The translations under genes were made by a program, and so were the position numbers. DNA of 11,270 bases, taken from the IMG/VR virus record IMGVR_UViG_3300045988_037349. One strand, given 5' to 3'. Each line of letters begins with the position of its first letter. Within the stretch, counting starts at the first letter, position 1. Positions 116 through 11,270 of this stretch are shown here, one piece after another. The notes under the pieces are model-generated. The model had not been told where the DNA came from and made no database searches. It saw only the letters and a program-made list of their open reading frames with translations. Source of the DNA: a virus.

Positions 116-149
116 GTTTGGCACGCTTTTTGCATAGGCCGTGCCAAAC
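116..149. repeat. Perfect 10-bp inverted repeat with 14-nt spacer inside the ITR (mirrored at 11122..11155)
   Basis: GTTTGGCACG (116..125) and CGTGCCAAAC (140..149) are exact reverse complements. The spacer is CTTTTTGCATAGGC. Confidence 0.9.
119..135 (+). promoter_or_regulatory. Sigma-54-type -24/-12 consensus match, copy 1 (in ITR); promoter function unproven
   Basis: TGGCACG-CTTT-TTGCAT fits TGGCACG-N4-TTGCW at every conserved position. It is part of the conserved 21-mer TTTGGCACGCTTTTTGCATAG (117..137). Confidence 0.45.
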
Positions 150-189
150 CTCCAAAATCCATGAAAAAACACCTCATCGCAAAATAATT

Positions 190-206
190 TGGCACGCTTT
201 TTGCAT
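190..206 (+). promoter_or_regulatory. Sigma-54-type -24/-12 consensus match, copy 2 (outside ITR)
   Basis: The identical 21-mer TTTGGCACGCTTTTTGCATAG lies at 188..208, 71 bp downstream of copy 1. It points toward the first gene. Confidence 0.45.
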
Positions 207-253
207 AGCTACAAAACAAAAATAAACCTTTTAAGATATTTTAATACTAAAAA

Positions 254-285
254 TTTGCATTAAGCACACAAAGTAACTACCTTTG
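254..285 (+). promoter_or_regulatory. Bacteroidota-type promoter (-33 TTTG / -7 TAnnTTTG) for the early operon
   Basis: TTTG (254..257), then a 20-nt spacer, then TACCTTTG (278..285). An A-rich leader follows up to the ATG at 319. Confidence 0.65.
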
Positions 286-1745: not shown

Positions 1746-2384
1746 ATGCCTAACAAGATAGGATACAAACAAAGCGTATTTACTGCAACTCAACGTACAG
1801 AGTTAAGGCAGGACATCATACAAAGCGTTGAGAGTAGCCCTGAACTAAGAAAGGAAGTAAGACGCGTATTTCAGCAAGCAAATAGACGTATACAGAATAT
1901 AGAAGACAAGGGGTTATTAAGTCCCGCAGTAACAGCCTTAAACAAAGGAGATATAAAAGGCTTTAGCAAATTTTCCGTTAGTGGCCAAAGTTGGGACGAA
2001 ATAAAAACAGAGTACGCAAAGGCAGTATCTTTTTTACGTCAGCCAACGAGTACCGCTCAGGGCACACGAACGTATAATGACCACATAAAAACCGCCTACG
2101 GACTTACCGACAAAGAATTTAATTTAATGGTCGGCAAGCTAAACGAAAAGCTAACAAGTTTAAGCGATAGCGATTTTGTAGAAAAATACCTAATGAAGTA
2201 CAAAGATTTTACGGGAGATTTGGAGCAAAGCGCACGAGACGCTAGCGAACAAATTGAAAGTGAAGCAGTAAGCCTACAAAACGCCATAGATAGCAATATC
2301 GAAAGCGAAGCCAACAAACTAACTAACGAAGTCGAAAGTGAGATTAACAGCATATTAGAAGAATTTAATAACTTCGGTTTATGA
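1746..2384 (+). CDS. Candidate terminal protein (212 aa)
   Basis: It lies immediately upstream of the protein-primed PolB and is coupled to it by an ATGA overlap (2381..2384), the same synteny as phi29 gp3-gp2. The N-terminal half is basic (RKEVRRVFQQANRRIQNIEDKG) and the C-terminal half strongly acidic and Ser-rich, like a DNA-mimicking priming domain. Sequence similarity to phi29 terminal protein is weak. Confidence 0.55.
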   Translation: MPNKIGYKQSVFTATQRTELRQDIIQSVESSPELRKEVRRVFQQANRRIQNIEDKGLLSPAVTALNKGDIKGFSKFSVSGQSWDEIKTEYAKAVSFLRQPTSTAQGTRTYNDHIKTAYGLTDKEFNLMVGKLNEKLTSLSDSDFVEKYLMKYKDFTGDLEQSARDASEQIESEAVSLQNAIDSNIESEANKLTNEVESEINSILEEFNNFGL

Positions 2385-4567
2385 AAAAGGTAAAATATGA
2401 GCAACATAGTGGTATTTATAAGGCAACCCACATAAAAGATATTTTGCAGTTGGCCGTAAATGACAAAAACGTAATAGGCAACAATAAAGGGTGTAAATTT
2501 TACAACGTGCCGTGCTCATTTGATATAGAAGTAAGTAGTTTTTATCGAGACGAAGACGGCAACACATACACATACGAGCAGTACACTAAATTAGGTGTAA
2601 AAATGGAAAAATGTGCTATTATGTACGTGTGGCAATTTGGCATAAATGGGTACGTAATAGTTGGCCGTACCTGGGACGAGTTTACAGCCATGTGTAACAC
2701 GATAGCGGCAACTTTGGAGTTATCCACAAACAAAAAACTAATAGTATATATACACAATTTATCATACGAATTCCAGTTTTTGCGCACCCTTTTTGAGTGG
2801 GACAAAGTATTTAGCATTGACCTACGCAAGCCATTATACGCAACTACAACAATAGGCTTAGAATTTAGGTGTAGCTACTTACTAAGCGGCTACAACCTAG
2901 CAAAGTTAGGCGAGCAACTACAAACGTACAAGTGTGCAAAAATGGTTGGAGATTTGGACTACACCAAAATACGCCACACACAAACAAAGTTAACCGATAA
3001 AGAGTTGCTTTACTGCGTAAATGACATAAAAGTAGTAATGAACTACATACAAGAGCAATTGGAGCAAAACAAGTTAATAACAAGATTGCCACTAACTAAA
3101 ACGGGTTATGTACGAAAGCATTGCCGCAAAGCAATGCTAAGCAAAAATGTTAACGGAAAAACCGCCCGAAATTGGGAATGTATTAATTTAATCCAATCAC
3201 TAACTATTTCGGGACTCCACGAATTTAACATGTTGCAAAGGGCTTTTAGTGGCGGATTTACCCACGGCAATGCTAACCACATAGACGAAATATGTGAAGA
3301 CGTTGCAAGTTACGATTTTACGAGTAGTTACCCGTATGTTATGGTGTCCGAAAAATTCCCTATGTCGAGAGGTATAAGGGTGCAACCCCGAAACATGAAA
3401 GAATTTGAGTACTACACAAGTAAGTACCTTTGTATTTTTGACGTGGAATTTACCAACATTTTTGCAAAAGAGTTGCAGGATAACCCTATAAGTGTATCTA
3501 AATGCTTTGTAAAAATAAATCACGTTGAAAATAACGGCCGCTTAGTATGTGCTGCAAAGGTAGCCACTACAATAACTAACATAGACTACAACATAATACG
3601 CAACTTTTACTCGTGGGGCGGTGTCCGTATCGGTGCAATGTATTGTTATAAGGCCGACTATTTACCAACTGATTTTGTACGTACCATTTTGGACCTATAC
3701 GAAAATAAGACAAAGTTAAAAGGCGTGCAAGGAAAAGAAGTGGAGTATTTAAATAGTAAGGAAATGTTAAATAGTTGCTATGGTATGTGTGTTACTAACC
3801 CGTTGCGCGATGAATTTGTATATGATGGGCAATGGGACGAAAACAAACTAACAGAAAGCGAAAAGGCCGAGATGTTACAGAAGTACAACGAAAGTAAAAA
3901 CCGATTTTTGTTTTACCCTTGGGGTGTTTTTGTTACTGCTTATGCAAGGCGCAATTTATTTACTGCAATCTACGAGGCAAAGCAAGATTACATATACAGC
4001 GACACCGACAGCATTAAACTACGTAACGCAGCAGCACATAAGCGGTATTTTGATATGTATAACAATGTAGTATATAACAAATTAAAGGCCGCGTGCAAAC
4101 ATCACAACATAGATTTTGACAAATGTGAACCCGAAACAATTAAAGGTGTTACAAAAACTTTAGGCGTTTGGGACTACGAAGGGACATACAAACGCTTTAA
4201 GACGTTGGGTGCGAAAAGATACATGGTGCAGGCAGAAAACGCCATAAACGTAGGCGGCAAAAGTTATGAATACAGCCTAACAATTAGCGGTGTAAACAAA
4301 AAGGCTGCAATACCCTACCTAGTTAAAAAGTATGGTGACAACATATTTAACGCATTTACGAATTATTTAGAATTTCCGTGCGAAGCCACGGGAAAGAATA
4401 TACATACATACATAGACTACAAAATAAGTGGTGAAGTAACCGACTACACGGGCAAAAAATGTACCTTTGCCGAAAACACGGGTGTACACCTAGAGCCAAC
4501 AAGTTACAACCTATCTTTAAGCGTTATGTACCTTAATTATTTGCAAGGCATAAAGCTAAAAGATTAA
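2381..4567 (+). CDS. Protein-primed family-B DNA polymerase (728 aa)
   Basis: All signature motifs occur in order: ExoI CSFDIEV, ExoII HNLSYEFQF, ExoIII YCVNDIKV, motif A YDFTSSYPYVM, motif B KEMLNSCYGM, motif C YSDTDS (nt 3995..4012), and KxY GAKRYM. Confidence 0.96.
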   Translation: MKKVKYEQHSGIYKATHIKDILQLAVNDKNVIGNNKGCKFYNVPCSFDIEVSSFYRDEDGNTYTYEQYTKLGVKMEKCAIMYVWQFGINGYVIVGRTWDEFTAMCNTIAATLELSTNKKLIVYIHNLSYEFQFLRTLFEWDKVFSIDLRKPLYATTTIGLEFRCSYLLSGYNLAKLGEQLQTYKCAKMVGDLDYTKIRHTQTKLTDKELLYCVNDIKVVMNYIQEQLEQNKLITRLPLTKTGYVRKHCRKAMLSKNVNGKTARNWECINLIQSLTISGLHEFNMLQRAFSGGFTHGNANHIDEICEDVASYDFTSSYPYVMVSEKFPMSRGIRVQPRNMKEFEYYTSKYLCIFDVEFTNIFAKELQDNPISVSKCFVKINHVENNGRLVCAAKVATTITNIDYNIIRNFYSWGGVRIGAMYCYKADYLPTDFVRTILDLYENKTKLKGVQGKEVEYLNSKEMLNSCYGMCVTNPLRDEFVYDGQWDENKLTESEKAEMLQKYNESKNRFLFYPWGVFVTAYARRNLFTAIYEAKQDYIYSDTDSIKLRNAAAHKRYFDMYNNVVYNKLKAACKHHNIDFDKCEPETIKGVTKTLGVWDYEGTYKRFKTLGAKRYMVQAENAINVGGKSYEYSLTISGVNKKAAIPYLVKKYGDNIFNAFTNYLEFPCEATGKNIHTYIDYKISGEVTDYTGKKCTFAENTGVHLEPTSYNLSLSVMYLNYLQGIKLKD

Positions 4568-4571
4568 AAAT

Positions 4572-4585
4572 GTTCCACGTGAAAC
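4572..4585. promoter_or_regulatory. Third copy of the CACGTG-centred 14-bp palindromic site
   Basis: GTTCCACGTGAAAC lies 10 nt upstream of the ATPase ATG, in the 28-nt gap between polymerase and ATPase. It is the reverse complement of the 914..927 site apart from one base. Confidence 0.5.
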
Positions 4586-4595
4586 AATCCAAACA

Positions 4596-5711
4596 ATGAA
4601 GAAAGAAGCAATAAAATTTTACTCGCTCGCAAATATCCTAAACAAAAAGGCAGATTATAACATAATATTCGGTGAGCGCTCAAACGGCAAAACATACGCT
4701 ACTTTGGCGTATGGTATAAAGAAGTATGTACAGACAGGGAAACAAATGGCCTATATACGTAGGTGGCGAGAGGATTTGCGTGGCAAACGTGCCGAAAGTC
4801 TGTTCGCTAACCACGTTGCAAACGGGTATATTGAAGAAGTAACAAATGGAGAATTTAACGCGGTATTTTACTTAGGTAGTAAATGGTATCTTGCAAAATA
4901 CGACCAAGAAAAGAAAAAGTACGTGCCCCAAACCACACCTTTTTGCTATGGCTTTTGCTTGTCAGAGCAAGAGCATGAAAAGAGTAGCAGTTACCCCAAC
5001 GTCACAACGATAGTATTTGATGAGTTTTTAACTCGTCGCTACTACCTACCCGACGAGTTTATGCTGTTTATGAACCTTTTAAGCACCATAATAAGACAGC
5101 GAGACGACGTTAAAGTATTTATGTTGGGTAACACGATTAACAAGTTTTGCCCCTACTTTACCGAAATGGGGTTGAAGCAAGTAACTAACATGGAGCAAGG
5201 CACTATCGACATATACAAGTTTGGGCAACATGGAGCAGTAGTAGCGGTGGAGTATTGCAGCACCATTGTCAAGCAAAAAGCAAGTAACAAGTATTTTTGC
5301 TTTGACAACCAAAACCTTGAAATGATAACCGGGGGCAAGTGGGAAATGGCGGCCTATCCACATTTGCCAACTAAATACACCCCCAAAGACGTGCTTTTTG
5401 TGTATTACATTGTATTCAACGAATACATTTTGCAAGGCAACATTATACAAGCAGGAAACGAAAACTTTACCTACATACACAGGAAGACCACCCCCATAAA
5501 AGACCCCGAAAACGCCCTAATATACAGCCTACACATGAACGGAAAACCGAACTACAAGCGCAAGTTAATAAGCAGTGCGACGTATTTAGAGAGTCAAGTG
5601 GCGCGGTATTTTGCCACCGATAAAGTATTTTACCAAAATAACGAGGTAGGCGAAATTGTGCGAAATTATTTAATGACATCCGCCAAAACCAACATTGTAA
5701 GTATCAAATAA
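4596..5711 (+). CDS. DNA encapsidation (packaging) ATPase, phi29 gp16 family (371 aa)
   Basis: Walker A is FGERSNGKT (nt 4671..4694). The segments AYIRRWREDL, EKSSSYPNVTTIVFDEF (Walker B) and LGNTINKFCPYF run parallel to my recollection of gp16 (GARGIGKS, IYVRRYKPEL, EKSNAYPNVSTIVFDEF, LSNAVSVVNPYF). Confidence 0.93.
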   Translation: MKKEAIKFYSLANILNKKADYNIIFGERSNGKTYATLAYGIKKYVQTGKQMAYIRRWREDLRGKRAESLFANHVANGYIEEVTNGEFNAVFYLGSKWYLAKYDQEKKKYVPQTTPFCYGFCLSEQEHEKSSSYPNVTTIVFDEFLTRRYYLPDEFMLFMNLLSTIIRQRDDVKVFMLGNTINKFCPYFTEMGLKQVTNMEQGTIDIYKFGQHGAVVAVEYCSTIVKQKASNKYFCFDNQNLEMITGGKWEMAAYPHLPTKYTPKDVLFVYYIVFNEYILQGNIIQAGNENFTYIHRKTTPIKDPENALIYSLHMNGKPNYKRKLISSATYLESQVARYFATDKVFYQNNEVGEIVRNYLMTSAKTNIVSIK

Positions 5712-5748: not shown

Positions 5749-5955
5749 ATGGATATTACACAAGTCACCCAAATAATTTCGAATGTTGGTTTTCCGATTG
5801 CTATGTGTCTAATAGTATTTTACTACATGACAAAGCACGATGAGCAGCATAAGGAAGAAACCGACAACCTACGTACTACCTTAGAGGATAATACCAAGGT
5901 ATTGAGCGAGTTAAGTACCCTAATTAAAACGTTGACGAATGGCAAAGAAAGATAA
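5749..5955 (+). CDS. Small single-pass membrane protein, YvrJ-like; candidate holin (68 aa)
   Basis: The N-terminus IISNVGFPIAMCLIVFYYM resembles the YvrJ family signature (xxNxGFPI plus a TM helix). The C-terminal tail is charged and looks coiled-coil. It overlaps the portal start by 17 nt. Confidence 0.6.
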   Translation: MDITQVTQIISNVGFPIAMCLIVFYYMTKHDEQHKEETDNLRTTLEDNTKVLSELSTLIKTLTNGKER

Positions 5956-6973
5956 CTTGTACCTAAAGTACCAAGAACAGATAAAAGACAAAGATAAAAG
6001 CGTAAATGGCTACATTCGCAAAATGTTAGCCATAACACAAGCAATGTTTGTTTACAAAGGTTTGCCCGAAACATTACCACAGAACACCCTTGAAAACCTA
6101 CTACAGACAAACGGCAATGTTTTTGTTACTGAGGTAGAAGGCAAATTATACGCTTTTAGTGGTGGCCTTGGAGGTGTCCCCAACGCGTACAATGAGGCAA
6201 CCGAATATATTGTAAGTAACCCCTATTTGAAACTCAACAAGTCGTACAAAATAGACGTTGAGGGCGTATTAATTAAAAACGATAGTGGCGCAAATAGCCT
6301 TTTGCCTATTTTTGGCAAATATGGTGTGTTGTGTAGTGATACGCTTGTGTCTCTTAACACATGCTCTGTTCTGTCTCGTATCACTATGTTAATAAGTGCG
6401 AGCGATGACAAGACAAAGCAAAGCGCGGACGATTTTGTAAATAAAATCATGCAGGGCGATTTTTCGGTAATTGGCGAAAACGCATTTTTCAAGGGCGTAA
6501 ACCTGCAAAGTATCAACACACAAAGCGCGAACCAAATAACGCAATTAATTGAGTTATTACAGTACTTCAAGGCGTCTGCATTCAACGAAATAGGCCTAAA
6601 CGCAAACTATAATTTAAAGCGAGAGCGGTTAAACACAAGTGAAGTACAAATGAATGTAGACGCCCTCAACCCTTATGTAGATAATATGTTGCAAGAGCGC
6701 AAAAAGGCAGTAGACAAGATAAACGCCATGTTTGACACTGAAATTAGTGTCGAGTTGGGTAGTAGTTGGGCTATACGCAAAGAAGAAAACAAAACCGAAA
6801 ACGAAGAAAATGAAGATAATAAAAATAATACTTCTGATAGTGGCGAAAGTGCTACTGAACAGAAAGAAGAGGAAGTAACAGAAACGGAAACCGAAATCGA
6901 AACGGACAAAGAAACGGACGAAGAAAAGGAACCCGAAACGGACAAAGAAACGGAAGAAAATGAAAATAATTGA
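5939..6973 (+). CDS. Portal / head-tail connector, phi29 gp10 family, with about 65-aa acidic C-terminal extension (344 aa)
   Basis: Blocks are collinear with my recollection of gp10: FVYKGLPETLPQNTLENLL vs FEWENLPPTINPSFLEKSI; FSGGLGGVPNAYNEATEYIVSNP vs [29 protein letters not shown] vs GVVIYNND; FNEIGLNANYNLKRERLNTSEV vs [20 protein letters not shown]. Confidence 0.85.
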   Translation: MAKKDNLYLKYQEQIKDKDKSVNGYIRKMLAITQAMFVYKGLPETLPQNTLENLLQTNGNVFVTEVEGKLYAFSGGLGGVPNAYNEATEYIVSNPYLKLNKSYKIDVEGVLIKNDSGANSLLPIFGKYGVLCSDTLVSLNTCSVLSRITMLISASDDKTKQSADDFVNKIMQGDFSVIGENAFFKGVNLQSINTQSANQITQLIELLQYFKASAFNEIGLNANYNLKRERLNTSEVQMNVDALNPYVDNMLQERKKAVDKINAMFDTEISVELGSSWAIRKEENKTENEENEDNKNNTSDSGESATEQKEEEVTETETEIETDKETDEEKEPETDKETEENENN

Positions 6974-7533: not shown

Positions 7534-8706
7534 ATGAACGTAAAACAGATTTACACCCTTGTAAACTCAGTATCTAAAGAGGTTTTAGGTACTGAGGAAC
7601 TAGTAAGCGAGGATTTAACAGGGCTTGTCGACCTTGGCAACGAAGTTTTTAATCAAAACGCGGTAGACAATTACGTTAAATCTCTTGTTAACCATATTGG
7701 TAAGGTGGTTTTTGTAAATCGCCCCTATGCTGGTAAAATTCCGTCTGTACTTATGGACGCTTGGGAATTTGGTTCCGTGCTCGAAAAGATTAGTGCAGAC
7801 TTACCCGAAGCCGTTGAAAATAAAACGTGGGAGTTAACCGACGGGGTGGATTACTCACAAGATGTATTTCATAAGCCAAAAGTTACAGCTAAATTTTTTA
7901 ATAGCAAGGTAACTTTTGAGGTTCCCGTATCTATCACCGAGCGACAAGTTAAGGAGAGTTTCAGCAACGCTGAGCAACTTAACGCATTTCTTTCGATGAT
8001 TTATAACGCGGTGGAGAAGTCCATTACCATTAAGACGGACGCGTTAATTATGCGCACTATTAACAATATGATTGCGCAAACTTTACTCGCTGATAGCGCG
8101 GCCTTTGGCGGTGATGCTGCACCCGACTACACAAGCGCAAGTACCGCTCGTTGCGTTAACTTGCTAAAGTTGTACAACGATAACAAAGGTACTACTTTGA
8201 CCGCTGAAAAGGCACTGACCGACCCCGATTTCATCAAGTTTGCAAGTTATACTATCGGCTTGTACACTGATAGACTTGCAAGTATTTCGAGCGTCTTTAA
8301 TATTGGGGGTAAGCCACGATTTACGCCGCGCGAAAACTTGCACGTTGTGTTACTGTCAGATTTCGAGAAAGCCGCCCGCGCGTATCTCTACAGCGATACA
8401 TACAACAAAGAGCAAGTATTATTACCGAATGCCGAAAGTGTTCCATTTTGGCAGGGTAGCGGAACAAAGTACGATTTTGCAAGCACGGCACATATCAACA
8501 TTAATGAGACTGGCGGAAAACCCGTTAAGATTAGCGGTGTACTTGGTGTTATGTTCGACCGTGACGCATTAGGCGTTTGCAACCTCAACCGCCGCGTTAC
8601 TACTAACTACAACGCAAAGGCGGAGTTCTTCAACAATTACTACAAGTTTGACGCTGGCTATTTCAATGACACTAACGAAAATTTCGTAGTTTTCTTTGTC
8701 GCTTAA
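7534..8706 (+). CDS. Major capsid protein, phi29 gp8 family (HK97 fold), 390 aa
   Basis: Blocks are collinear with my recollection of gp8: [19 protein letters not shown] vs [40 protein letters not shown] vs [30 protein letters not shown] vs [23 protein letters not shown] vs LEAVLVDKDWFMV. A dedicated promoter and a strong terminator flank it, as expected for the most abundant virion protein. Confidence 0.85.
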   Translation: [390 protein letters not shown]

Positions 8707-8725: not shown

Positions 8726-8760
8726 AAGGTGGTGTAATATACACCACCTTTTTTAATTTT
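8726..8760 (+). terminator. Rho-independent terminator or attenuator after the capsid gene
   Basis: Perfect 11-bp stem AAGGTGGTGTA (8726..8736) / TACACCACCTT (8740..8750) with a 3-nt loop. TTTTAATTTT follows, so with the TT closing the stem the U-tract has 6 T. Confidence 0.85.
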
Positions 8761-9208: not shown

Positions 9209-11059
9209 ATGGCAGATTATGTTTTGGGTAATTTGGTTAATGATATACCAAATACCACACTAACACAGCGAGACACAGGTAAAACGGAAACGGACAACCA
9301 AGGAGTTACACGCACAATTACAGAAATTACAATAACTTGTGATGATGGGTTCTACTCGCTTAAAGATTGGCAAAACGATTTAAATGGGAAATTTACGTAT
9401 AATGACGCTTTAACGAGTGGCACGCAAGAAGTAAAAACAAAGGTAAACAACTTAAATGTAGGGTGGACTTTCAGCGGCTCTACAAACGCGCTGCCTAACG
9501 TAACAAATAACATAGAGAATACCACCTACAAAATAAGCAAAGCACAACAAGACGTAAGTGTTAACGTTATAGTTGTGACAGCTAACGCAGGGTATCAGTT
9601 TGACGATCCGCCAACGTGCAAATATACTGACGGGTTCGGAGGTGACGCAACAGCAAAAGGTGTTATAAGTCAAAACAAACAAAGCGCAACTTTTACGATA
9701 GAAGACGCCTACAACAAGCGGCCTAACTTCGTTCTAATTGGTGACGTTGTGGAAGGTACGCCAACGATTACCATAACAAATAACTTAGACGGCACAAACG
9801 CTACATATACATACGATAACGGCACTTTTAACATAACAATTAAAGGTACAAACAGCGGCTATGTTATACAAGTGGCCAACGTAACGTACAAAGATAACGG
9901 GGGTGTTTCGCATACTGATAACATGACAATTGCGAGCAGCGACACCGCAACTATCGCATTAACAAATGTAGACACCGCTACACCCGTTGTTATTAATGGC
10001 ACTTACATTAAGGCGATACCCGTAAAAAACACCCTATATAATTGTACGGCCGAAAATATACCAACATATTATACCGCTACCGACAAAGTTAATGTTACAC
10101 TACAAGCAAATGAGGGTAGTAAGTTTACAAGCGAGACAGACCCACCCGAAATAAGATATACTGACGAGTTCGGGGGTGTACAATATAAACGTTTTACGCT
10201 AAGCGATGAAGGCAAACGGGGTAGCATAACACTTGACATTGCAACCGAATGCCCCAAAACTGAGTACATCGAATTTCGTGGAGGGGCAAAAGTTGATGTA
10301 CAGCCAAGCATTAAAAATTATGGTGCTATCAATGTGTATGTAGTTACGCTTGACAACCTCGAAGCGTTTAGCAAAAAACGTTACTTCACAGAAAGCGGCA
10401 CTTTTATTACCTATGAACAAGACCTAAGCGAGTATGTGAACAGAATTAAGCGTATTTATACACATATACCAACAAAAGGCACTGACCGAATAAAATGCGG
10501 CAACTACGATACCGAGATAAACGCAGATTTGCCCGAAAAGGATATAATAACGCTTGATTTTGGCAGTATCACGATACCACGCAAAGATAATACCACACTT
10601 GATAAAGATATGATAATCGAGGTATTTTTGCCGTTCGTGGGTATTGTTTCGCTTTCTTCTGACTACGTTGGTAAATCTGTAAAATTGGTGTACGATATAA
10701 ATGTAATTAGCGGTGACGGGGTTTGTAAATTGTTGGATAATAACGATTTACCGATACAATTACATAACGTACAACCTAATACCGATGTACTTTACACTAC
10801 TTACGACACGTCCGTAATAGGTAACGATAGGTGGGACGCACAAAATTTATATGGCTTTGAGCCGTTTGTGAGGCTGAATTACTACACCAATGAGTACAGC
10901 GATACACGCGGCAACGACTACAAAAAAGTTGTACTTTCGCACTGTGCAAAAGGTTTTTACAAGTTCGATGAGATTGTAAATAATGATATAGACAACGTAC
11001 CAAAAAGTGAGTACACCGAAATTGTTAATTTATTGCAAAGCGGTGTGTTTATAGATTAA
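9209..11059 (+). CDS. Tail protein (616 aa): about four tandem beta-rich repeat modules plus a gp9-like tail knob C-terminal region; probable receptor-binding component
   Basis: It starts 1 nt after the upstream stop. The repeat motif is DPPxx[KR]YTD[GE]FGG, seen as DDPPTCKYTDGFGG and TDPPEIRYTDEFGG. The C-terminal segments IEVFLPFVGIVSLSSDYVGKSVKLVYDINVISGDG and EYTEIVNLLQSGVFID resemble my recollection of gp9 segments [23 protein letters not shown] and DLQEIRTIFDNGITLW. Confidence 0.6.
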   Translation: MADYVLGNLVNDIPNTTLTQRDTGKTETDNQGVTRTITEITITCDDGFYSLKDWQNDLNGKFTYNDALTSGTQEVKTKVNNLNVGWTFSGSTNALPNVTNNIENTTYKISKAQQDVSVNVIVVTANAGYQFDDPPTCKYTDGFGGDATAKGVISQNKQSATFTIEDAYNKRPNFVLIGDVVEGTPTITITNNLDGTNATYTYDNGTFNITIKGTNSGYVIQVANVTYKDNGGVSHTDNMTIASSDTATIALTNVDTATPVVINGTYIKAIPVKNTLYNCTAENIPTYYTATDKVNVTLQANEGSKFTSETDPPEIRYTDEFGGVQYKRFTLSDEGKRGSITLDIATECPKTEYIEFRGGAKVDVQPSIKNYGAINVYVVTLDNLEAFSKKRYFTESGTFITYEQDLSEYVNRIKRIYTHIPTKGTDRIKCGNYDTEINADLPEKDIITLDFGSITIPRKDNTTLDKDMIIEVFLPFVGIVSLSSDYVGKSVKLVYDINVISGDGVCKLLDNNDLPIQLHNVQPNTDVLYTTYDTSVIGNDRWDAQNLYGFEPFVRLNYYTNEYSDTRGNDYKKVVLSHCAKGFYKFDEIVNNDIDNVPKSEYTEIVNLLQSGVFID

Positions 11060-11065
11060 CGGCCT

Positions 11066-11082
11066 ATGCAAATAGCGTGCCA
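11066..11082 (-). promoter_or_regulatory. Sigma-54-type consensus match, right-end internal copy (minus strand, facing inward)
   Basis: The reverse complement reads TGGCACG-CTAT-TTGCAT. The full 24-mer TTTGGCACGCTATTTGCATAGGCC differs from left copy 1 by a single base. Confidence 0.35.
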
Positions 11083-11107
11083 AATGTTTTTGGTACGCTA
11101 TTTTTTT
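11073..11107 (+). terminator. Rho-independent terminator after the last gene
   Basis: 12-bp stem TAGCGTGCCAAA (11073..11084) / TTTGGTACGCTA (11089..11100) with one G-U wobble and a 4-nt loop. Seven T follow (11101..11107). The left arm is part of the right-end internal 21-mer copy. Confidence 0.75.
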
Positions 11108-11116
11108 GTTTATTCG

Positions 11117-11270
11117 TGGAGGTTTGGCACGGCCTATGCAAAAAGCGTGCCAAACTCTGTTGGCGAATGTTAAAAATGTGTTGGGAAATGTTAAAAAGGG
11201 GGTCGTTGTGCATATTTCTTCTTGATATTCATATTCGTATTCTTTGGATGTTGATGTTTATTTACTCTTA
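11117..11270. repeat. Right inverted terminal repeat (154 bp, perfect)
   Basis: Exact reverse complement of 1..154. Together with a protein-primed PolB, this is the classic architecture of terminal-protein-capped linear genomes. Confidence 0.97.
11136..11152 (-). promoter_or_regulatory. Sigma-54-type consensus match, right ITR copy (minus strand, facing inward)
   Basis: This is the ITR mirror image of 119..135. It lies 70 bp from the right-end internal copy, against 71 bp between the two left-end copies. Confidence 0.35.

Follow-up and report, generated by a model that had tools for sequence, protein, structure and literature searches.

The DNA studied here, IMG/VR virus record IMGVR_UViG_3300045988_037349, comprises 11,270 nucleotides (nt) and is called the window throughout. 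We analysed a 21-nt element that recurs near both ends of the window and resembles the -24/-12 promoters of sigma-54 (RpoN). Exact searches located TTTGGCACGCTTTTTGCATAG on the plus strand at 117–137 (outer left copy) and 188–208 (inner left copy), the two positions given in the original prediction, and on the minus strand at 11134–11154 (outer right copy). An inner right copy at 11064–11084, likewise on the minus strand, carries one mismatch (T to A in the spacer). In a pattern scan of the window, the core TGGCACG-N4-TTGCA was free of mismatches in all four copies (119–134, 190–205, 11137–11152 and 11067–11082). Thus, the proposed match at all 12 specified positions was reproduced, and the distance from GG (120–121 and 191–192 in the left copies) to GC (132–133 and 203–204) was canonical in every copy. 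The chance expectation for the core, corrected for composition and covering both strands, was 6.4e-4 per genome, in agreement with the earlier estimate of one per thousand genomes, and 200 shuffles of the sequence yielded no match to the 21-mer.

Four core matches are therefore present as claimed, but the count was inflated. The outer copies lie within a perfect 154-nt inverted terminal repeat (ITR), so that 11134–11154 is the inward-pointing image of 117–137; the two represent a single element counted twice, which leaves three independent occurrences. Both inner copies are located outside the perfect repeat, in flanks that are unrelated to each other. The left copies face the early genes, the first of which starts at 319, and their GG and GC coordinates predict transcript starts at about 145 (outer) and 216 (inner), the values expected before.

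By its phi29-type genes and the perfect repeat at both ends (1–154 and 11117–11270), the window is classed as the complete linear genome (11.3 kb) of a phi29-like, protein-primed phage. As expected for an ITR of this kind, the repeat is accompanied by matches to DNA_pol_B_2, Podovirus_Gp16, Phage_connector and Phi29_MCP, and the long open reading frames (ORFs) all lie on the plus strand. The first gene (319–609, 96 amino acids) has no family match and no Shine-Dalgarno sequence upstream. It is followed by g3 (946–1155), with homologues in relatives L090 and L078, and by g4 (1152–1322) and g5 (1334–1687), which encode conserved early proteins of 56 and 117 amino acids and adjoin the gene of a putative terminal protein (1746–2384, named from synteny only). 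Next are a protein-primed family-B DNA polymerase (2381–4567, DNA_pol_B_2), a packaging ATPase of the phi29 gp16 type (4596–5711, Podovirus_Gp16), a gp10-type connector (5939–6973, Phage_connector) and a phi29-type major capsid protein (7534–8706, Phi29_MCP). A holin-like gene of 68 codons (5749–5955; PHROG 4898, E 7e-12) lies between packaging ATPase and connector. The last gene (9209–11059, 616 amino acids) has no family match; since no separate endolysin gene was recognised in the window, lysis activity may reside in its product.

At the left end, two tandem 21-nt elements on the plus strand, TTTTTAACATTTCCCAACACA and TTTTTAACATTCGCCAACAGA (74–115), share the form TTTTTAACATT(T/C)(C/G)CCAACA(C/G)A. 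The outer left copy of the motif forms the left arm of a palindrome, GTTTGGCACG-N14-CGTGCCAAAC (116–149), whose minus strand holds a convergent sigma-54-like site with one mismatch (131–146). Downstream of the motifs lies a promoter element of the Bacteroidota sigma-A type (254–285, plus strand; -33 TTTG at 254–257, a 20-nt spacer and -7 TACCTTTG at 278–285), which is conserved in relatives. The housekeeping-type promoter that had been placed here thus stands as an element, but it is of the Bacteroidota type and not TTGACA/TATAAT. We applied TAnnTTTG with TTTG 17–23 nt upstream, after the published -33/-7 consensus TTTG / TAnnTTTG (PMC9723704), and found further candidates before the genes starting at 5749 and 7534. 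The 21-mer itself was rejected as a promoter of this type because it contains no TAnnTTTG.

Palindrome and terminators raise the question whether the elements might act as DNA or RNA hairpins, that is, as terminators or displaced-strand structures, instead of being recognised by a protein. The palindrome folds well as single-stranded DNA (-11.3 kcal/mol, z -4.05), and a strong terminator hairpin with a T-run, described below, has the -24 half of the inner right copy as one of its arms. However, the inner left copy is unstructured (z +0.7), no T-run follows position 149, and neither left copy shows the G+C-rich hairpin plus T-run of an intrinsic terminator. The palindrome is furthermore confined to the close clade of the window, its partner arm being absent from the mid and distant clades that keep the motif, and hairpins leave the conservation of TTGC at a fixed distance unexplained. 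We regard this explanation as very improbable.

The motif and its replacement in related phages

The capsid protein has 340 relatives in IMG/VR, 80 of which were fetched for a motif survey. Nearly every full-length relative among these carried one to four copies per end, all facing inward, at spacings of 71, 70, 58, 48, 43 or 27 nt, and seven further contigs of about 11 kb contained the exact 21-mer at both ends. With a pattern that required GG, we collected 135 distinct instances, in which TGGCACG and TTTTTG were essentially fixed, -19 was G or C, -17 was T or A, and the flanks differed. Conservation thus falls mainly on the -24 and -12 elements while the spacer is free, as in sigma-54 sites. 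Position -12 was C in 89 instances and T in 45. The inner left copy (188–208) is the most variable one among close relatives; position-matched copies in nine of them kept GG in 9/9 and GC in 7/9 cases. The conservation of both dinucleotides, put forward as a test, therefore held for GG and only in part for the -12 C, which is replaced in about one third of the instances (TTGT). Most copies are preceded by TTTAACA at about -48 to -42 (some 73–90% per position across the 135 instances), and this element might serve as an UP-like or accessory site.

Among isolates, the nearest relatives are Astrithrvirus phages of Salmonella, Shigella, Pectobacterium, Enterobacter and Acinetobacter and an unclassified Vibrio phage, with capsid proteins 55–59% identical to that of the window. 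The Astrithrvirus isolates share polymerase, putative terminal protein, ATPase, connector and capsid protein, yet lack the -24/-12 motif and display tandem TTGACA-N17-TATAAT promoters at the equivalent terminal position. Firmicutes-type relatives (capsid 53–63% identical, with Shine-Dalgarno sequences) likewise had no motif and carried sigma-70 promoters in the same place. One copy was kept in relative L092, which has 75% capsid identity and Bacteroidota-type signals. The exchange of the motif for sigma-70 promoters in relatives of other hosts indicates that it tracks the host transcription system and not the polymerase and terminal protein machinery.

More distant relatives of the same family (capsid about 80% identical) have genes that run inward from both ends. 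At each end, the site array is followed by two or three TGTTTCACGTGGAACA boxes, a sigma-A promoter and the first gene, so that co-orientation of sites and genes is found at both ends. In the window, near-palindromic (A)TGTTTCACGTGGAACA boxes occur at 889–900 and 915–926 on the plus strand and at 4573–4584 on the minus strand. They fit TGT-N10-ACA, are absent from Astrithrvirus and Firmicutes-type relatives, and could be candidate operators or enhancers. In L090 the boxes are followed by the g3 homologue as first gene; in L078 the homologue is encoded on the minus strand, at the right end. By this comparison the close clade of the window has evidently lost its right-end genes. A separate sequence, GTTYGGCACGAAATTTGCACCA, is conserved inside the ATPase gene of distant relatives on the minus strand at about 5250–5390 (e.g. 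L019:5264, L030:5296) and absent from the window. It has a perfect sigma-54 core in some genomes and CGGCAC in most, and with the latter prevailing we took it to be probably a coding coincidence.

At the right end of the window, the inner copy lies 5 nt past the stop codon of the last gene and would be antisense to it. The intrinsic terminator of this gene (11070–11110, plus strand) starts 11 nt after the stop and consists of a 15-bp hairpin (11070–11103; -13.8 kcal/mol, z -6.1) and a T-run. The ascending arm corresponds to the reverse-complemented -24 half of the inner right copy and pairs with 11089–11103. The inner right copy has thus been reused as one terminator arm, and the outer right copy persists because it lies inside the ITR; neither has to have a role of its own. 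On the minus strand at 11020–11060, CCGCTTTGCAATAAAT represents the left sigma-A -7 box (TACCTTTGCAATAT) in decayed form and now falls within the final codons of the plus-strand gene 9209–11059. This is consistent with the loss of ancestral right-end genes that read inward.

The physical ends were approached through the relatives. In five contigs, adapters were fused directly to AAA(G/T)RTAYGC, and the first motif most often lay 65 nt from the contig end (modal value). Both point to a terminus 65 nt before the first site, which corresponds to position 54 of the window (AAATATGCAC...). Positions 1–53 and 11218–11270 are present in no relative. The true terminus is therefore likely position 54, where the sequence starts with AAA as in phi29, and the 53 nt beyond it at each end of the window may stem from an assembly error or represent true variation. 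In the close relative L005, the ITR is extended to about 230 nt and takes in the inner copy, and the right end (11537–11661) bears a third copy, of the terminator type; the ITR boundary thus moves across the site array. In L223 (ENA ERZ27272161 k141_156845, 33.9 kb), a bacterial SecA gene is joined directly to the phage at about 825, which equals window position 143 or so. The junction is the right arm of the 116–149 palindrome, and the remaining phage sequence extends to the contig end. A chimera from assembly or library preparation could account for this, as could an illegitimate join; were the junction real, SecA could reveal the host. A search for transcript-like contig ends returned a 674-nt contig starting at about 78 and one chimeric contig, neither of which informs the start sites.

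Other features of the window lie away from the motif. Strong hairpin terminators at 1701–1729 and 8726–8750 are each followed by a shared TTTTAATTTTAC and ATG (genes 1746 and 8767), which suggests read-through or attenuation points within one long direction of transcription. The connector ends in an acidic low-complexity tail (…EEEVTETETEIETDKETDEEKEPETDKETEENENN) that is encoded by 12-nt repeats (6749–6973). Screening the entire window against Rfam (E<=1) yielded no match, and hence neither packaging RNA (pRNA) nor any other known RNA. GenBank phages had no megablast match to the genome, and blastn with the terminal region found no isolate bearing a similar array.

Site clusters in unrelated phages

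A pattern scan of IMG/VR for TTGGCACGNNNNTTGCAT returned at least 120 loci, 119 of which lie outside this family. Among the matches listed, clusters of TGGCAY-N5-TTGC (at least three sites within 400 nt) were present in 38 of the 119 unrelated contigs, and these 38 form at least 19 nucleotide-similarity groups with GC contents of 0.30–0.57. All three cluster contigs that were checked encode terminase or portal genes, and tblastn of the proteins of our family against the cluster contigs found no similarity except two weak matches in L159. Shine-Dalgarno sequences seem to be used in most of these contigs. A comparison of L129 and L107 with isolates showed neither to be close to any characterised phage. 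Cluster loci in L102–L220, with three to nine sites each, include L107:33–256, L127:3455–3639, L153:2642–2838, L186:1421–2207 and L201:3351–3463. Clusters in other phages reach eight to nine sites at 27-nt spacing, and convergent overlapping pairs occur in L127, L153 and L102. In L201, L116 and L153, the sites alternate with, or precede, co-oriented sigma-70-type promoters, a layout as in the window.

We then considered 197 instances that had not been selected by the query. Position -27 was T in 64%, -20 was a purine in 97% and -11 was A or T in 92% of them, and the spacer was random. The sigma-54 consensus compiled by Barrios et al. in 1999 reportedly reads YTGGCACGrNNNTTGCW. The degeneracy of the phage instances equals this profile, and unrelated phages have converged on it, which argues for a shared reader in the host and not for a phage-specific protein.

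These data bear on the idea that the repeats bind a protein of the phage, such as a p4- or p6-like regulator or origin binder (the 56- or 117-amino-acid protein), the terminal protein or the polymerase, and that the likeness to sigma-54 sites is coincidental. Direct repeats inside the ITR of a protein-primed replicon would suit such a binder. So would the distribution of g4 and g5, which occur in most Bacteroidota-type relatives that bear the motif and in none of the Astrithrvirus isolates, and the conservation of the T-tract, TTTAACA and a G at -8 beyond the sigma-54 consensus. However, an arbitrary repeat would match one known bipartite motif at 12 of 12 positions with a likelihood of about 1e-6, and the same motif with the same degeneracy profile recurs in the at least 19 unrelated phage groups, which lack these proteins. 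The irregular spacing (71, 58, 48, 43 and 27 nt), which varies among relatives, is unlike that of phased iterons, and no DNA-binding domain was detected in the proteins of the window. Sequence searches of the PDB with the 56- and 117-amino-acid proteins found nothing, and a single-sequence AlphaFold model of the latter was unusable (pLDDT 43). We consider a phage-encoded reader quite doubtful.

Given these clusters, we tentatively propose that near-consensus sigma-54 sites grouped at or near genome ends, seen in this large family of 11-kb gut phages and in at least 19 unrelated groups spanning host phyla, might be a widespread and undescribed phage strategy, maybe one that goes beyond starting transcripts; we would not yet wager on it. 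The literature searched contained no description of sigma-54 site arrays, be it in phages or in ITRs.

Host sigma-54 and the proposed early promoters

Only one of the 14 genes of the window is preceded by a Shine-Dalgarno-like sequence, versus 12 of 15 in Salmonella phage astrithr. Together with the TTTG/TAnnTTTG promoters, this makes a Bacteroidota host probable. Several related contigs stem from faecal or gut assemblies. A host assignment through GTDB genomes was discarded, as the 13 matches (MAG contigs labelled Prevotella, Scatosoma, Gastranaerophilales, Staphylococcaceae and others) are binning noise. A survey of bacterial classes, as distinct from the host of this phage itself, found rpoN in 27/27 Bacteroidia and 74/75 Flavobacteriia (PMC12316311).

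In Flavobacterium psychrophilum, mapping of transcription start sites revealed the motif TGGCACGnnnnTTGC (SM4) at the groES/EL, dnaK, lon, clpB and htpG promoters as well as at envelope and gliding promoters, and the sigma-54 promoters of groES, dnaK, lon and clpB have a high basal level. GrpE and GroES are reported to be sigma-54-dependent in B. thetaiotaomicron. The promoters of these Bacteroidota regulons follow the same TGGCACG-N4-TTGC consensus as the phage sites. They differ in that the F. psychrophilum promoters are single and weaker matches (e.g. groS, TTGGCATAATTTCTGA), whereas the phage sites are nearer to the idealised consensus and carry a T-tract. We presume that this T-tract, at -18 to -14 in the family, resembles that of high-affinity sigma-54 sites such as S. 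meliloti nifH. The -12 elements of F. psychrophilum include TTGA and TTGT (groS as above, clpB TTGGAATAACAATTGA, lon ATGGCACAATCCTTGA; others have TTGT), and sigma-54 use in this phylum is thus reconcilable with the TTGT variants of the phage family. They count against it on an E. coli-centred view only, an objection that the F. psychrophilum promoters remove.

Taken together, recurrence across the family, replacement by sigma-70 promoters and the clusters in unrelated phages strengthen the claim that -24/-12 type sites face the early genes. We consider it likely that host sigma-54 recognises these sites. That they also function as host RpoN-dependent early promoters ahead of the Bacteroidota sigma-A promoter is the reading we favour, with a probability of roughly 55%. 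Under it, the host holoenzyme E-sigma54 would bind the 21-mers as closed complexes, in a small tandem cluster at the genome end. A host enhancer-binding ATPase would open them, and transcripts would run from about 145 and 216 through the sigma-A promoter into the first gene. The opening ATPase could be the driver of the flavobacterial sigma-54 regulon for proteostasis and envelope stress. In the ancestral layout, genes would have run inward from both ends with the repeat supplying promoters for both, the right-end genes having since been lost. The analysis shows the identity, conservation and orientation of the motif and its positional equivalence to promoters of relatives; binding, activator dependence and start sites are what we infer.

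Several observations weigh against promoter function. Left copies lie upstream of, and co-oriented with, a transcription unit; the right-end copies do not, as there is no minus-strand gene at the right end and they point antisense into the last gene. Domain searches among the ORFs of the window found no AAA+ activator (Sigma54_activat), sigma factor or DNA-binding domain, the sole encoded ATPase is the packaging enzyme, and no enhancer was recognised in the window. In relatives only 65 nt lie upstream of the first site. With a sigma-A promoter downstream, sigma-54 promoters are not obviously needed. The G at -8, found in 124 of the 135 family instances, is family-specific like TTTAACA and is not explained by sigma-54. 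Since the whole ITR is well conserved within each clade, motif conservation alone is weak evidence, and the inward orientation may partly reflect tandem duplication and the symmetry of the ITR. Finally, of the 38 clusters of unrelated phages, 12 were co-directional with genes, 4 opposite and 18 mixed or convergent, a weak test because the cases are non-independent and the ORF calls crude; mixed and convergent orientation fits binding better than simple promoter use.

Such binding could serve another purpose. The sites may attract sigma-54 or its holoenzyme into stable closed complexes mainly as a sink that draws sigma-54 off host stress genes, as a roadblock or insulator, or as an origin-associated factor that aids protein-primed replication. 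Multicopy sites of near-optimal sequence, densely packed in other phages, would be in line with this, as would the convergent overlapping pairs there and at 116–149, the right-end copies kept where nothing is to be transcribed, the fixed 65 nt between the first site and the physical terminus, and the lack of a recognised activator or enhancer in the window. In adenovirus, another linear genome with protein-primed replication, host NFI and Oct-1 sites in the ITR stimulate the initiation of replication. This likeness, host transcription-protein sites in a protein-primed ITR, is an analogy only, and a replication role is not needed here. Against such a role, every copy in the family faces genes and takes the position at which relatives have promoters, and the retention at the right end is accounted for by the ITR and the reuse in the terminator. 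Relatives with homologous polymerase and putative terminal protein replicate without the motif. To our knowledge no phage sigma-54 sink and no origin role for sigma-54 is known, and the literature searched held no report of either. We therefore judge a primary function of this kind unlikely.

Tandem early promoters for the host polymerase that are packed into the first few hundred bases and read inward from genome ends are familiar from T7 (A1–A3) and phi29 (A2a–c and C2). Astrithrvirus has such co-oriented promoters within or beside its ITR, at the place homologous to that of the sites in the window. In all three, however, these are sigma-70 or sigma-A promoters that fire without an activator, whereas the window has sites of another sigma class upstream of a single sigma-A promoter.

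The original prediction had called sigma-54 use uncommon in phages and dependent on an activator. This holds, with Pseudomonas aeruginosa phage YuA (Ceyssens et al. 2008) as the cited precedent and no activator encoded in the window. In PMC5053324 and bioRxiv 10.1101/2023.10.13.562163, YuA is described as dependent, reportedly strictly so, on host sigma-54, and phage use of this factor is portrayed as rare yet not unprecedented. YuA is, as proposed for our phage, a virulent tailed phage that has no RNA polymerase of its own and uses host RpoN, and its -24/-12 promoters were reportedly demonstrated with a promoter trap. Three -24/-12 promoter fragments, annotated as active, are listed for the late region in the GenBank entry of YuA, and the best of them has two mismatches to the consensus. 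As the annotated fragments hold only poor matches, YuA was unhelpful as a positive control for the consensus scan. YuA is a 58.7-kb siphovirus with single, poorly matching sites before late structural and lysis genes. In contrast, the window has near-perfect tandem sites in or beside the ITR, before the early genes of an 11-kb protein-primed podovirus with a probable Bacteroidota host. In a review of phi29-like phages, a single metagenomic genome is named as putatively infecting Bacteroidales, and promoters of this kind are not treated there.

If the sites fire, an abundant family of tiny gut phages relies for its early expression on a sigma factor that requires an enhancer, and the success of infection is tied to the host state that the activator senses, a built-in conditional switch. 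Under the strategy tentatively proposed above for site clusters, several E-sigma54 complexes stalled on incoming DNA could gate the early programme on a stress-activated host enhancer-binding protein, and sites multiplied by genome replication could soak up the small cellular pool of sigma-54. Since sigma-54 of Flavobacterium runs a regulon of chaperones, proteases and envelope stress, the phage could plug into the host stress response. The sites would also be a simple host-range marker, with hosts that lack rpoN excluded, and as compact, near-ideal sigma-54 promoters they are candidate genetic parts for Bacteroidota. Judging from the clusters in unrelated contigs, phages may use sigma-54 far more often than YuA, the only textbook case, implies. 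We regard these clusters as the lead of greatest interest.

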